A program made the translations under genes and the position numbers. The notes below the pieces were generated by a model that saw nothing but the letters and a program-made list of their open reading frames with translations, ran no database searches and was not told where the DNA came from. This document shows positions 1 through 12,492 of a stretch of 64,000 nucleotides of DNA, piece by piece. The stretch is from the NCBI GenBank assembly GCA_964016885.1, contig OZ024757.1, forward strand, positions 2,294,001-2,358,000. The letters are read 5' to 3'. This DNA is from Eledone cirrhosa (lineage: Eukaryota). How positions within the stretch are numbered: position 1 is the first letter of the stretch; every line of letters starts with the position of its first letter.

Positions 1-282
1 CGAAACGAAATTAAATTTCGTTTCGTTTGTAACTCACTTTTGTATGACTGACGCTTAAACAATTAAGTTAAAGATGTACATCCATATATGTATACTGAAA
101 TACTAGTATGTATATGAATACACACACGTATACATATGTAGATGTACCAAGTTTTTTCACTGGTCACTTTACTGTGAGTGGCCAGCTATTCTGTATGTAA
201 ACACACAGACAAACCGGTTTTTAGAGTCATACTGGTTTTTGAGGAAACACCTTTCCTCTATTCTCCAGAAAGCCAGACAAGG

Positions 283-327
283 AATATTGGACTAGTTTCG
301 TTGTTGTTACAACTCATCAGCAATATT
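283..327 (-). ncRNA. Minimal type I hammerhead ribozyme (representative; 12 copies in the left arm)
   Basis: The minus strand reads AATATTG-CTGATGA-GTTGT-AACA-ACAAC-GAAA-CTAG-TC-CAATATT: 7-bp helix I, canonical core, 5-bp helix II, palindromic CUAG helix III and a GUC cleavage triplet. Confidence 0.9.
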
Positions 328-386
328 TACCTATCTTCCGGCCTCTCTAGAGAAACGTAAAAGCACATATCGTTATATGCTTTTTC

Positions 387-421
387 TATGAAAATTAGTA
401 GTGGGCAGACTAATTTGCATA
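387..421. promoter_or_regulatory. Octamer dyad (ATGAAAAT...ATTTGCAT) upstream of the HHR in each 467-bp unit
   Basis: tatgaaaatta-gtagtgggcaga-ctaatttgcata, with a perfect octamer ATTTGCAT at 413-420. It is conserved in the diverged copy at 10539-10574. Function is inferred only. Confidence 0.45.
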
Positions 422-3400
422 GAGTGTGAGTAAGTACCGGTTCAACGGAGACGATAAAAACAAATAACGAAACGAAATTAAATTTCGTTTCGTTTGTAAC
501 TCACTTTTGTATGACTGACGCTTAAACAATTAAGTTAAAGATGTACATCCATATATGTATACTGAAATACTAGTATGTATATGAATACACACACGTATAC
601 ATATGTAGATGTACCAAGTTTTTTCACTGGTCACTTTACTGTGAGTGGCCAGCTATTCTGTATGTAAACACACAGACAAACCGGTTTTTAGAGTCATACT
701 GGTTTTTGAGGAAACACCTTTCCTCTATTCTCCAGAAAGCCAGACAAGGAATATTGGACTAGTTTCGTTGTTGTTACAACTCATCAGCAATATTTACCTA
801 TCTTCCGCCTCTCTAGAGAATCGTAAAAGCACATATCGTTATATGCTTTTTCTATGAAAATTAGTAGTGGGCAGACTAATTTGCATAGAGTGTGAGTAAG
901 TACCGGTTCAACGGAGACGATAAAAACAAATAACGAAACGAAATTAAATTTCGTTTCGTTTGTAACTCACTTTTGTATGACTGACGCTTAAACAATTAAG
1001 TTAAAGATGTACATCCATATATGTATACTGAAATACTAGTATGTATATGAATACACACACGTATACATATGTAGATGTACCAAGTTTTTTCACTGGTCAC
1101 TTTACTGTGAGTGGCCAGCTATTCTGTATGTAAACACACAGACAAACCGGTTTTTAGAGTCATACTGGTTTTTGAGGAAACACCTTTCCTCTATTCTCCA
1201 GAAAGCCAGACAAGGAATATTGGACTAGTTTCGTTGTTGTTACAACTCATCAGCAATATTTACCTATCTTCCGGCCTCTCTAGAGAATCGTAAAAGCACA
1301 TATCGTTATATGCTTTTTCTATGAAAATTAGTAGTGGGCAGACTAATTTGCATAGAGTGTGAGTAAGTACCGGTTCAACGGAGACGATAAAAACAAATAA
1401 CGAAACGAAATTAAATTTCGTTTCGTTTGTAACTCACTTTTGTATGACTGACGCTTAAACAATTAAGTTAAAGATGTACATCCATATATGTATACTGAAA
1501 TACTAGTATGTATATGAATACACACACGTATACATATGTAGATGTACCAAGTTTTTTCACTGGTCACTTTACTGTGAGTGGCCAGCTATTCTGTATGTAA
1601 ACACACAGACAAACCGGTTTTTAGAGTCATACTGGTTTTTGAGGAAACACCTTTCCTCTATTCTCCAGAAAGCCAGACAAGGAATATTGGACTAGTTTCG
1701 TTGTTGTTACAACTCATCAGCAATATTTACCTATCTTCCGGCCTCTCTAGAGAAACGTAAAAGCACATATCGTTATATGCTTTTTCTATGAAAATTAGTA
1801 GTGGGCAGACTAATTTGCATAGAGTGTGAGTAAGTACCGGTTCAACGGAGACGATAAAAACAAATAACGAAACGAAATTAAATTTCGTTTCGTTTGTAAC
1901 TCACTTTTGTATGACTGACGCTTAAACAATTAAGTTAAAGATGTACATCCATATATGTATACTGAAATACTAGTATGTATATGAATACACACACGTATAC
2001 ATATGTAGATGTACCAAGTTTTTTCACTGGTCACTTTACTGTGAGTGGCCAGCTATTCTGTATGTAAACACACAGACAAACCGGTTTTTAGAGTCATACT
2101 GGTTTTTGAGGAAACACCTTTCCTCTATTCTCCAGAAAGCCAGACAAGGAATATTGGACTAGTTTCGTTGTTGTTACAACTCATCAGCAATATTTACCTA
2201 TCTTCCGGCCTCTCTAGAGAATCGTAAAAGCACATATCGTTATATGCTTTTTCTATGAAAATTAGTAGTGGGCAGACTAATTTGCATAGAGTGTGAGTAA
2301 GTACCGGTTCAACGGAGACGATAAAAACAAATAACGAAACGAAATTAAATTTCGTTTCGTTTGTAACTCACTTTTGTATGACTGACGCTTAAACAATTAA
2401 GTTAAAGATGTACATCCATATATGTATACTGAAATACTAGTATGTATATGAATACACACACGTATACATATGTAGATGTACCAAGTTTTTTCACTGGTCA
2501 CTTTACTGTGAGTGGCCAGCTATTCTGTATGTAAACACACAGACAAACCGGTTTTTAGAGTCATACTGGTTTTTGAGGAAACACCTTTCCTCTATTCTCC
2601 AGAAAGCCAGACAAGGAATATTGGACTAGTTTCGTTGTTGTTACAACTCATCAGCAATATTTACCTATCTTCCGGCCTCTCTAGAGAATCGTAAAAGCAC
2701 ATATCGTTATATGCTTTTTCTATGAAAATTAGTAGTGGGCAGACTAATTTGCATAGAGTGTGAGTAAGTACCGGTTCAACGGAGACGATAAAAACAAATA
2801 ACGAAACGAAATTAAATTTCGTTTCGTTTGTAACTCACTTTTGTATGACTGACGCTTAAACAATTAAGTTAAAGATGTACATCCATATATGTATACTGAA
2901 ATACTAGTATGTATATGAATACACACACGTATACATATGTAGATGTACCAAGTTTTTTCACTGGTCACTTTACTGTGAGTGGCCAGCTATTCTGTATGTA
3001 AACACACAGACAAATCGGTTTTTAGAGTCATACTGGTTTTTGAGGAAACACCTTTCCTCTATTCTCTAGAAAGCCAGACAAGGAATATTGGACTAGTTTC
3101 GTTGTTGTTACAACTCATCAGCAATATTTACCTATCTTCCGGCCTCTCTAGAGAATCGTAAAAGCACATATCGTTATATGCTTTTTCTATGAAAATTAGT
3201 AGTGGGCAGACTAATTTGCATAGAGTGTGAGTAAGTACCGGTTCAACGGAGACGATAAAAACAAATAACGAAACGAAATTAAATTTCGTTTCGTTTGTAA
3301 CTCACTTTTGTATGACTGACGCTTAAACAATTAAGTTAAAGATGTACATCCATATATGTATACTGAAATACTAGTATGTATATGAATACACACACGTATA

Positions 3401-5511
3401 CATATGTAGATGTACCAAGTTTTTTCACTGGTCACTTTACTGTGAGTGGCCAGCTATTCTGTATGTAAACACACAGACAAACCGGTTTTTAGAGTCATAC
3501 TGGTTTTTGAGGAAACACCTTTCCTCTATTCTCCAGAAAGCCAGACAAGGAATATTGGACTAGTTTCGTTGTTGTTACAACTCATCAGCAATATTTACCT
3601 ATCTTCCGGCCTCTCTAGAGAATCGTAAAAGCACATATCGTTATATGCTTTTTCTATGAAAATTAGTAGTGGGCAGACTAATTTGCATAGAGTGTGAGTA
3701 AGTAGCGGTTCAACGGAGACGATAAAAACAAATAACGAAACGAAATTAAATTTCGTTTCGTTTGTAACTCACTTTTGTATGACTGACGCTTAAACAATTA
3801 AGTTAAAGATGTACATCCATATATGTATACTGAAATACTAGTATGTATATGAATACACACACGTATACATATGTAGATGTACCAAGTTTTTTCACTGGTC
3901 ACTTTACTGTGAGTGGCCAGCTATTCTGTATGTAAACACACAGACAAACCGGTTTTTAGAGTCATACTGGTTTTTGAGGAAACACCTTTCCTCTATTCTC
4001 CAGAAAGCCAGACAAGGAATATTGGACTAGTTTCGTTGTTGTTACAACTCATCAGCAATATTTACCTATCTTCCGGCCTCTCTAGAGAATCGTAAAAGCA
4101 CATATCGTTATATGCTTTTTCTATGAAAATTAGTAGTGGGCAGACTAATTTGCATAGAGTGTGAGTAAGTACCGGTTCAACGGAGACGATAAAAACAAAT
4201 AACGAAACGAAATTAAATTTCGTTTCGTTTGTAACTCACTTTTGTATGACTGACGCTTAAACAATTAAGTTAAAGATGTACATCCATATATGTATACTGA
4301 AATACTAGTATGTATATGAATACACACACGTATACATATGTAGATGTACCAAGTTTTTTCACTGGTCACTTTACTGTGAGTGGCCAGCTATTCTGTATGT
4401 AAACACACAGACAAATCGGTTTTTAGAGTCATACTGGTTTTTGAGGAAACACCTTTCCTCTATTCTCTAGAAAGCCAGACAAGGAATATTGGACTAGTTT
4501 CGTTGTTGTTACAACTCATCAGCAATATTTACCTATCTTCCGGCCTCTCTAGAGAATCGTAAAAGCACATATCGTTATATGCTTTTTCTATGAAAATTAG
4601 TAGTGGGCAGACTAATTTGCATAGAGTGTGAGTAAGTACCGGTTCAACGGAGACGATAAAAACAAATAACGAAACGAAATTAAATTTCGTTTCGTTTGTA
4701 ACTCACTTTTGTATGACTGACGCTTAAACAATTAAGTTAAAGATGTACATCCATATATGTATACTGAAATACTAGTATGTATATGAATACACACACGTAT
4801 ACATATGTAGATGTACCAAGTTTTTTCACTGGTCACTTTACTGTGAGTGGCCAGCTATTCTGTATGTAAACACACAGACAAACCGGTTTTTAGAGTCATA
4901 CTGGTTTTTGAGGAAACACCTTTCCTCTATTCTCCAGAAAGCCAGACAAGGAATATTGGACTAGTTTCGTTGTTGTTACAACTCATCAGCAATATTTACC
5001 TATCTTCCGGCCTCTCTAGAGAATCGTAAAAGCACATATCGTTATATGCTTTTTCTATGAAAATTAGTAGTGGGCAGACTAATTTGCATAGAGTGTGAGT
5101 AAGTAGCGGTTCAACGGAGACGATAAAAACAAATAACGAAACGAAATTAAATTTCGTTTCGTTTGTAACTCACTTTTGTATGACTGACGCTTAAACAATT
5201 AAGTTAAAGATGTACATCCATATATGTATACTGAAATACTAGTATGTATATGAATACACACACGTATACATATGTAGATGTACCAAGTTTTTTCACTGGT
5301 CACTTTACTGTGAGTGGCCAGCTATTCTGTATGTAAACACACAGACAAACCGGTTTTTAGAGTCATACTGGTTTTTGAGGAAACACCTTTCCTCTATTCT
5401 CCAGAAAGCCAGACAAGGAATATTGGACTAGTTTTGTTGTTGTTACAACTCATCAGCAATATTTACCTATCTTCCGGCCTCTCTAGAGAATCGTAAAAGC
5501 ACATATCGTTA

Positions 5512-9233
<3,722 letters not shown>

Positions 9234-9450
9234 ACAGCGATTATGAATAAACGAAGTGAATTAACTCGTCGACTTGTACATCAAGATTATATATATATAT
9301 ATATATATATGTATATGTGTGTGTGTGTGTGTTGGTGTGTCGGTGTGTTGGTGGGTGGGTGGAAAATGTGACTTTTATAGTATGCTTAACAGATGTACTT
9401 ACTACTGTATATGGTCAACTATTATTAGCATTGAGCTATATATATATGCC

Positions 9451-9560
9451 AGATAGACCAGAACGCACCAGAGTACTCGATACTAGGGGCAGTAGAATAG
9501 GTAATATTAGTTCGGATCTTGTTGTCGAAACGGCCGGGGCTCAGCCGTCGGGGTTCTGAA
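9451..9560 (+). mobile_element. Diverged family A copy
   Basis: gaccagaacgcaccagagtactcgatact...gtcgaaacggccggggctcagccgtcgggg matches the other copies. Confidence 0.6.
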
Positions 9561-9569
9561 TCTCTTCAC

Positions 9570-9652
<83 letters not shown>

Positions 9653-9783
9653 GTGAGGTTTTTTTTACAAAATGAAAAATAACCGAGGTGTCCTACACGA
9701 GTGAAAGTATAAAGAAAAAGAGATGAAATCGAAAATGCAACTGGAGTCTTATTTTAAAAAAAAATATATATATTTATTTGGTT

Positions 9784-9821
9784 CCTTTACCGGTTTCGCA
9801 GTTCTTCTGCTTTTCAAAAGG
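9784..9821 (-). ncRNA. Mirror copy of the U3-A8 hammerhead
   Basis: Exact reverse complement of 9900-9937. Confidence 0.65.
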
Positions 9822-9899
9822 TGAGTTGAGATGGAGGGTCTGTGGTTTTTCTCACATCAAGATTATATATATAAACCACAGACCCTCCATCTCAACTCA

Positions 9900-9937
9900 C
9901 CTTTTGAAAAGCAGAAGAACTGCGAAACCGGTAAAGG
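9900..9937 (+). ncRNA. Minimal hammerhead ribozyme, U3-A8 variant
   Basis: CCTT-TTGAAAA-GCAG-AAGAA-CTGC-GAAA-CCGG-TA-AAGG, followed by AATAAA. Confidence 0.65.
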
Positions 9938-10044
9938 AACCAAATAAATATATATATTTTTTTAAAAAATAAGACTCCAGTTGCATTTTCGATTTCATCT
10001 CTTTTTCTTTATATATATATATATATATTATATATATATATGTA

Positions 10045-10103
<59 letters not shown>

Positions 10104-10218
10104 TTGTAATAAAATGAAAACGAAATTTCATTTCTCACTCTTAGTACGGCACTTACTTAAATGTAAGTATGTATGTATACGTACATACATATATGTATAC
10201 AGACGTACAGTAGCATGC

Positions 10219-10315
<97 letters not shown>

Positions 10316-10448
10316 CAGGTACACATACATATATGTACGTATCAGTTTAGCGGACGCTTATTATAAACAAACAAACTGAACAGCCTGAATTTATGTCGTA
10401 CGGTGTTAAGGCAACCATGTCACCTTTTTGTTCAACACTGACACAGGA

Positions 10449-10491
10449 ACGATGTACTAGTTTCAAGCTTGTTAGCTATCATCAGCACCGT
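10449..10491 (-). ncRNA. Minimal hammerhead ribozyme in a diverged relative of the 467-bp unit
   Basis: The minus strand reads ACGGTG-CTGATGA-T-AGCT-AACA-AGCT-T-GAAA-CTAG-TA-CATCGT. It has the same AACA loop II and CUAG helix III as the array HHR. Confidence 0.75.
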
Positions 10492-10576
10492 ATACCCTTC
10501 TGCCAGATGGTTGAACGTTCGAAAGTATATACTTTCCTTATGAAAATTAACGGCTGAGCAGCCTAATTTGCATATC

Positions 10577-11516
<940 letters not shown>

Positions 11517-12164: not shown

Positions 12165-12492
<328 letters not shown>

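Follow-up and report, generated by a model that had tools for sequence, protein, structure and literature searches.

A young hammerhead retrozyme copy in Eledone cirrhosa with a candidate U6-type promoter element and Penelope-like insertion geometry

The single repeat unit at positions 10102-10577 of the window (the whole stretch of 64,000 nucleotides of Eledone cirrhosa contig OZ024757.1 that was analyzed) is probably a young, 5'-truncated subfamily B copy of a non-LTR hammerhead retrozyme, in which a U6-type promoter element and a TATA box likely drive transcription, and which was likely inserted into (TA)n by a Neptune-like Penelope reverse transcriptase (RT) and endonuclease. The features to which this reading refers are listed below, numbered from the first letter of the window.

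1..8534, no strand: subfamily A insertion, two head-to-head tandem arms of a 467-bp unit meeting at 5512
9646..10010, no strand: 3' end of an autonomous, putatively Neptune-like Penelope family, inverted and (TA)n-flanked, with a one-arm tail of ~63-65 nt
10010..10101, no strand: (TA)n target tract on the 3' side of the solo copy
10102..10577, minus strand: near-full-length single unit of retrozyme subfamily B, assigned by near-identity to other copies
10102..10134, minus strand: terminal hairpin and "long" 3' end, running into (TA)n
10156..10170, minus strand: position of the "short" 3' end (tail start) as used by other B insertions
10219..10312, no strand: internal (TA)n tract belonging to the B unit, its length differing from copy to copy
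10449..10491, minus strand: type I hammerhead with a 6-bp helix I, a 4-bp helix II on a U.U base, a palindromic minimal helix III and a GUA triplet
10486-10491 and 10449-10454, minus strand: helix I strands ACGGUG and CAUCGU
10479-10485, minus strand: CUGAUGA core
10455-10464, minus strand: GAAA-CUAG-UA
10496..10501, minus strand: predicted transcription start, placed by host geometry (element at -78 or TATA at -30)
10525..10531, minus strand: TATA-like box within a short palindrome, 43 nt after the element start
10539..10549, minus strand: second dyad arm, predicted RNA partner of the first arm (mean pairing probability 0.88)
10557..10574, minus strand: first dyad arm, a U6/MRP/U6atac-type proximal promoter element (TATGCAAATTAG plus 6 nt; 20.1 bits on the host matrix)
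10579..10623, no strand: (TA)n tract on the 5' side of the solo copy

The solo copy and its repeat family

The initial annotation presented the unit as a diverged solo relative of the 467-bp unit of the nearby array. Homology to that unit was confirmed, with an alignment score of 138 against a mean of 41.3 (sd 5.7, maximum 66) for 500 dinucleotide shuffles, and all of its statements on the sequence itself (minus-strand hammerhead at 10449-10491, core, AACA loop, CUAG and dyad) were verified. The divergence is, however, between source lineages and not within the solo copy. A DNA search with the solo returned 539 candidates, and the best 40 of these 539 include the solo itself and copies 89-98% identical to it. 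The closest of the 29 top loci (L004) is identical in 400 of 404 aligned columns, a count that leaves aside an internal deletion of ~18 nt in the solo and for which TA tracts were shortened. The solo's hammerhead is among the commonest haplotypes of subfamily B, which has its own tandem and inverted arrays and an internal (TA)n tract of variable length. We conclude that the solo is an ordinary young copy of a very abundant retrozyme repeat, truncated at its 5' side ~3 nt before the promoter-like element. With its single hammerhead it could not free a monomer and is likely a dead end.

A natural B unit is 68% identical to the array (A) unit over 433 aligned columns, which span the whole unit length, and subfamilies A and C are 70% identical. 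Exact A/B dyads number 17,713 genome-wide (reversed control 0) and C dyads, which have a different second arm, 13,164 (control 4), giving ~30,900 exact dyads in all. The expected co-occurrence of dyad and hammerhead was borne out across the genome: with the spacer range narrowed to 13-14, 17,101 of the 17,713 exact dyads have CTGANGA 52-69 nt downstream (control 0). An older, homologous subfamily F gave 2,283 candidates, of which the best 40 are mostly 87-91% identical to the query. Family units measure 430-510 bp at a GC content of 0.35-0.36 and contain one hammerhead each, and the longest ATG frames in unit dimers are 30 (A), 87 (B) and 68 (C) aa. The family has the sequence characters of a non-LTR retrozyme, namely a type I hammerhead, short low-GC tandem units, no apparent protein-coding capacity and a monomer predicted to be highly self-paired.

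Within the dyad arms, rare variants show no clear deficit relative to the remainder of the unit (B, 11/779 versus 269/18,391; C, 5/416 versus 236/8,660), and these similar counts give no firm sign of selection on inserted copies. In a test for RNA-editing scars, A>G changes were above T>C in all three subfamilies, not significantly in any (p = 0.21, 0.18, 0.29). Elsewhere in the window, a 99-bp satellite occupies 26592-64000 (~378 copies, 96% matches). A subfamily A unit (L086:181) also lies ~1.3 kb upstream of the first U1 gene examined in a tandem U1 cluster, and is absent at five other U1 loci checked.

Hammerhead ribozyme and upstream promoter-like element

The solo's hammerhead is predicted to be cut between 10455 and 10454, at its GUA triplet. 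Helices I and II had been described as largely replaced yet still pairing; the pairs hold, but that description missed the U.U mismatch on which helix II closes, and the GUA triplet. Rfam matches the hammerheads of the A array, one per unit, weakly to HH9 (40 bits, below the 52-bit cut-off) and does not list the solo hammerhead at E<=1. In ten representatives of A, B, C and F, 7 of 16 stem pairs change on both sides and 95.6% of cells pair, in agreement with the claimed covariation. The covariation score is 0.481, compared with 0.189 +/- 0.033 for shuffles and at most 0.104 when the stems are slid; drawn from only four lineages, it should not be read as a probability.

A palindromic hexamer forms helix III in all four lineages (ACUAGU in A-C, ACAUGU in F), which suggests that cleavage may be dimeric, as described for amphibians in the available part of PMC7229834. 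In the same source, an axolotl monomer with a U.U helix II base is reported as 22% cleaved within 1 h, and cleavage was reported for 1 of 9 Xenopus elements tested in the accessible text of a 2026 preprint (10.64898/2026.07.22.740005). By analogy, the U.U base would be a weak variant, and it counts against an active predicted ribozyme. A genome search for hammerheads with a G/C-rich helix II yielded one match. A one-sided tail and a compact hammerhead, whose helix II likewise closes on U.U, occur in another TA-targeted element (L154, L157, L161, L168).

Upstream of the hammerhead, the first arm of the solo's dyad (whole dyad 10539-10574, minus strand) matches a host promoter element. This element, TATGC(A/T)AAT(T/G)AG, is found with at most one mismatch in three distinct U6 promoters (at -77, -78 and -79), in the MRP promoter (-78) and at the best U6atac locus (-78), with TATA at -30 in all five, and the repeat's first arm equals one host U6 promoter at 12/12 positions. 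A matrix built solely from these five promoters, a small set chosen for carrying the element (leave-one-out host scores 12.5-22.5), ranks the first arm as the top site in A, B, C and the solo, at 20.1-21.0 bits (0/1000 shuffles each); 14 host U1/U2/U5 promoters score at most 8.5 bits on this U6/MRP/U6atac matrix. Among six non-redundant top U6 loci the element is in place in three, displaced in two and missing in one. It is missing from twelve weaker U6 matches (whose start positions are uncertain) and seven weaker U6atac matches, all treated as pseudogenes, and is not present upstream of host RNase P.

An snRNA-type promoter had at first been rejected on the octamer-free U1 and U2 promoters, a decision reversed by the element in U6, MRP and U6atac. 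Mimicry of histone H2B promoters was also rejected, there being no exact octamer upstream of 10 host H2B genes. The host snRNA promoters (L061-L090, L232-L287, L300, L308, L309) form two classes: U1/U2/U5, with AATTA near -90, TCAGT near -57 and TATA near -30, and U6/MRP/U6atac, in which the octamer lies within the element at -78. Both classes share a distal TTACCTCCCTT-like motif near -260, and the RNase P promoter has the U1-type layout, which hints at Pol II transcription. By eye and unscored, subfamilies B and C have TCAG at a distance from TATA similar to that of the U1/U2/U5 class, and A has none.

The element was also followed independently of the ribozyme. A promoter-only pattern with no ribozyme term, designed after both host and repeat sequences were known, has 305 genome matches (control 0). 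At 24 loci (25 sites, one A-derived) picked by eye as non-A/B/C-like among 100 of the 305 matches, a hammerhead core lies 78-107 nt downstream in 16 of 25 sites, compared with 11/422 control windows and 189/12,500 shuffles. The older families D, E and F were defined from promoter-pattern sites, and subfamily F sites keep the TATA box in 19/19 and the hammerhead core in 18/19 cases. Over the genome, CTGANGA follows 24,667 of 27,279 element sites, with the young families making up most of this count. No tRNA or other Rfam genes were found behind the other promoter-pattern matches. From the element match and the TATA box, the retrozyme unit likely carries its own promoter. The old, diverged hammerhead families D and E (L311, L314, L324, L325, L329, L335, L337, L341-L351, L354, L355) sit behind the U6-type element as well, and family E keeps the host spacing of 47-49 and has a T run shortly after the core.

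Which polymerase would use this promoter is less clear. The offset from element to TATA is 42-45 in A, B, C, D and F (43 in B and C, 42-43 in A, 44 in F) versus 47-49 in all five host promoters, a value that among the repeat families is seen solely in E; in insects this spacing is reported to be closely conserved (PMC1761439, in part). Host terminators are T5-T10, and tandem units contain T runs through which the polymerase would have to read: T4 in 31/40 B units, with T7-T8 in 8 units at 2 loci, T5 in 43/45 A units and T6 in 4/5 C units. Runs of T4-T8 lie near the long end of the unit, but insertions extend beyond them. Subfamilies A, B and C have no sense-strand match to the host distal element that most U1/U2/U6 promoters contain, and host MRP and U6atac are likewise without it. 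Human type 3 promoters also recruit Pol II, according to the accessible part of PMC6023835. The short spacing, the T runs and this Pol II recruitment leave the polymerase open between Pol III and Pol II: we lean, if only a little, towards Pol III with leaky read-through, and give Pol II acting from the U6-type element somewhat less than even weight.

Insertion ends and Penelope-like elements

Ends were surveyed in 104 clusters at 92 loci (top matches or first matches on one contig, with two overlapping locus pairs retained). In 50 closed two-armed insertions, with 3' ends outward on both sides, 36 combine a long with a short end, none combines two long or two short ends, and the remaining 14 involve another end, often the internal TA tract. 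Paired long and short ends are 60-70 nt apart, 111 of the 123 long or short ends run into (TA)n, and 46 5' ends are scattered. The subfamily A insertion of the window (arrays 1-5512 and 5512-8534) fits the long-plus-short rule: its right arm finishes at the long end (8534) and its left arm at a short end 1.8 kb left of the window (in L118), both in (TA)n. The solo insertion combines a long end with the 5' truncation.

For Penelope elements, the tail was identified in vitro as the stretch between two internal RT start sites and called unique to these elements (PMC11167929), and an inverted partner arm and (TA)n targeting are described in PMC8557442 (both sources in part). The end geometry thus suggests that the retrozyme is likely copied by Penelope-type retrotransposons. 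The genome contains 10,596 GIY-YIG candidates, the best 150 of which were scored; long ORFs encode an RT followed by GIY-YIG, with a cysteine linker. We read these ORFs as Neptune-like, a clade assignment taken from the linker motif described in the available part of PMC8557442 and not from a tree. The inverted 3' end at 9646-10010 is 89-98% identical to 3' ends beside RT/GIY-YIG ORFs in L152, L153, L157, L160, L161 and L163, and the putatively Neptune-like elements share the retrozyme's insertion geometry of inverted arms, one-sided tail and (TA)n. Their 3' UTR motifs are labelled here, presumptively, as CCAAT-, E2F- and TATA-like. Among the matches listed for 50 Penelope loci (of the 10,596 candidates), no autonomous element was found to share the retrozyme's terminal sequence.

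Other mobile-element remains lie close to the solo. Short pieces at 8682-8810, 9420-9570 and 12270-12460 are TA-flanked inverted ends of a further Penelope-like family, which has half a hammerhead (GAAAC...GUC) and a long tail on one side; the spacer of the B dyad resembles the stem-loop of this second family, probably by chance. A degenerate LINE-like reverse transcriptase 3' fragment with broken frames, which we take to be RTE-like, occupies 10625-11410 (minus strand); its end, a small hairpin and (TA)n, immediately adjoins the 5' side of the solo.

Alternative readings and a proposed cycle

The dyad might be a mere RNA hairpin of a self-paired circular RNA, with transcription by host-gene read-through and the promoter match an unused relic. 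In circular folds of A, B and C, most dyad positions do pair with a probability exceeding 0.9, and the monomers give z = -7.6 to -9.8 (30 shuffles each), partly from TA-rich palindromes; the TATA spacing is ~5 nt short, and retrozymes seem to lack promoters in the accessible part of PMC7761336. Under a hairpin constraint, however, both arms would be free to change. What is observed is that the first arm is fixed in A-F, with a TATA box at a near-fixed distance, while the second is TAATTTTCAT in A/B, TAATATGCAT in C and unmatched in 19/19 F sites (one-mismatch test). The first arm pairs at ~0.9 in A-C and at 0.04-0.60 in six F copies, there in part with another partner that is rich in G.U pairs; in six of the seven D/E copies its pairing is ~0. 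The second arm of unit A scores 4.3 bits on the host promoter matrix. Around the TATA box, subfamilies A, B, C1 and F retain the short palindrome despite sequence changes, and in C2 it is broken. Because the first arm is fixed while its partner changes or vanishes, we regard the second arm as a replaceable RNA partner that selection most likely maintains solely for pairing with the promoter sequence in the RNA, and a hairpin without promoter function appears unlikely. The initial annotation had proposed an old, diversified family under selection for two modules. The family is indeed old and diversified, with compensatory stem changes in the hammerhead and an upstream element that is kept; the solo is not a diverged relic of it, and the conserved module is not the octamer dyad but its first arm together with the TATA box.

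A DNA-level function of both arms is more improbable still. The dyad would then be a two-site target of a POU/Oct dimer, acting as an enhancer or as a Pol II promoter unrelated to the snRNA machinery. POU proteins bind octamer-type sites, the first arm holds a perfect octamer and both second-arm variants are one change away from it. Yet the second arm is unmatched in F (0/19) and not seen in D/E sites, the host promoter match extends past the octamer, and no exact octamer was found in the upstream regions of host U1/U2/U5 or in H2B promoters. The factor binding the single host element could nevertheless be a POU protein. Least probable of all, the units would be pseudo-LTRs (pLTRs) that became detached from an autonomous Penelope family yet to be found and multiplied as satellite DNA through recombination, without passing through an RNA of their own. 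Xenopus retrozymes are reported as homologous to pLTRs in the available text of the 2026 preprint (10.64898/2026.07.22.740005), and the negative editing-scar test (A>G vs T>C, p = 0.18-0.29) points the same way. Recombination does not explain thousands of dispersed insertions with fixed paired 3' ends and scattered 5' ends, and terminal homology is lacking among the matches listed for the 50 Penelope loci.

The reading as a retrozyme with its own promoter was compared with known systems. As in host type 3 (gene-external) Pol III promoters, a proximal element and then TATA stand on the same strand directly before the RNA module; the retrozyme differs in its spacing (43 vs 47-49), in the position of the promoter inside the repeat unit and in having no hard terminator in most tandem units. 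The promoter of newt satellite 2 reportedly includes an octamer. Satellite 2 (Coats, Zhang and Epstein 1994, as cited in PMC2220036, in part) is likewise a hammerhead tandem repeat with an internal snRNA-type promoter, which is reported as Pol II, whereas the element here belongs to the U6/MRP/U6atac class and not to U1/U2/U5. With metazoan non-LTR retrozymes, as far as the excerpts go (PMC7229834; 10.64898/2026.07.22.740005), the family shares one type I hammerhead per low-GC tandem unit, monomers and multimers, strong predicted self-pairing and co-occurrence with Penelope elements, and with axolotl HHR_Amex2 (PMC7229834) the U.U at the helix II base. Units of 430-510 bp are at the upper end of the metazoan range, and cleavage and circles, demonstrated for those retrozymes, are predictions for the Eledone family. 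In the same excerpts, Cervera and de la Pena (2020) and Li, Clavereau and Pollet (2026) argue for Penelope mobilisation from co-occurrence and pLTR homology, with no junction geometry. Penelope-like elements (Frangieh et al. 2024, PMC11167929; Craig et al. 2021, PMC8557442; both in part) have a comparable inverted 5'-truncated arm, one-end tail and AT-rich/(TA)n targets. Unlike them, the retrozyme is without a long ORF, has a canonical rather than minimal hammerhead and, among the matches listed for 50 loci, no shared terminal sequence; its tail is 60-70 nt, versus 30-40 nt in Penelope-like elements and ~63-65 nt in the putatively Neptune-like elements here.

Copy number, near-identity, stem covariation, the host promoter match and insertion geometry are observed, and we infer from them every RNA step of the following cycle. 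Within a tandem source array, the transcript would begin immediately 5' of hammerhead helix I and, by running on into the following unit, would come to include that unit's promoter, which otherwise lies outside the RNA. Cleavage at two hammerheads would free a unit-length RNA, probably circularised. On a nicked (TA)n tract, a Penelope enzyme would then use each of the two strands as a primer, at a pair of internal sites separated by 60-70 nt, and this two-sided priming would give head-to-head arms and rebuild the order of promoter before ribozyme. Tandem copying that returns an external promoter to the front of the ribozyme would explain why both modules are kept together.

More tentatively, and with somewhat more doubt than confidence, at least six hammerhead lineages, from young to very old, may be self-transcribing genes that captured a host gene-external U6-type promoter and kept it via read-through, cutting, circles and Penelope copying; the shortened spacing (43-45 vs 47-49) would then be an adaptation to read-through, for example a switch of polymerase. 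The retrozyme class is already known, a Penelope origin has been argued (2026 preprint, in excerpt), and newt satellite 2 is a precedent for an internal snRNA-type promoter. The present analysis adds three points: the dyad separates into one arm fixed as promoter sequence and another that is free to change as a pairing partner, a search by promoter pattern without the ribozyme leads to older families, and the element-to-TATA spacing differs from that of the host. A literature search limited to openly accessible texts found no published U6-type promoter in a retrozyme and no cephalopod retrozyme; in the parts of the literature examined, neither a U6-class element nor the tail geometry of retrozymes was found.

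The literature examined leaves open both the mode of transcription of animal retrozymes and the identity of the enzyme that copies them. Here the two questions are tied to defined coordinates, namely one site where transcription is predicted to start, one promoter element that has a counterpart in the host and two candidate RT start sites; the analysis also supplies a candidate U6-type promoter element for this animal group.
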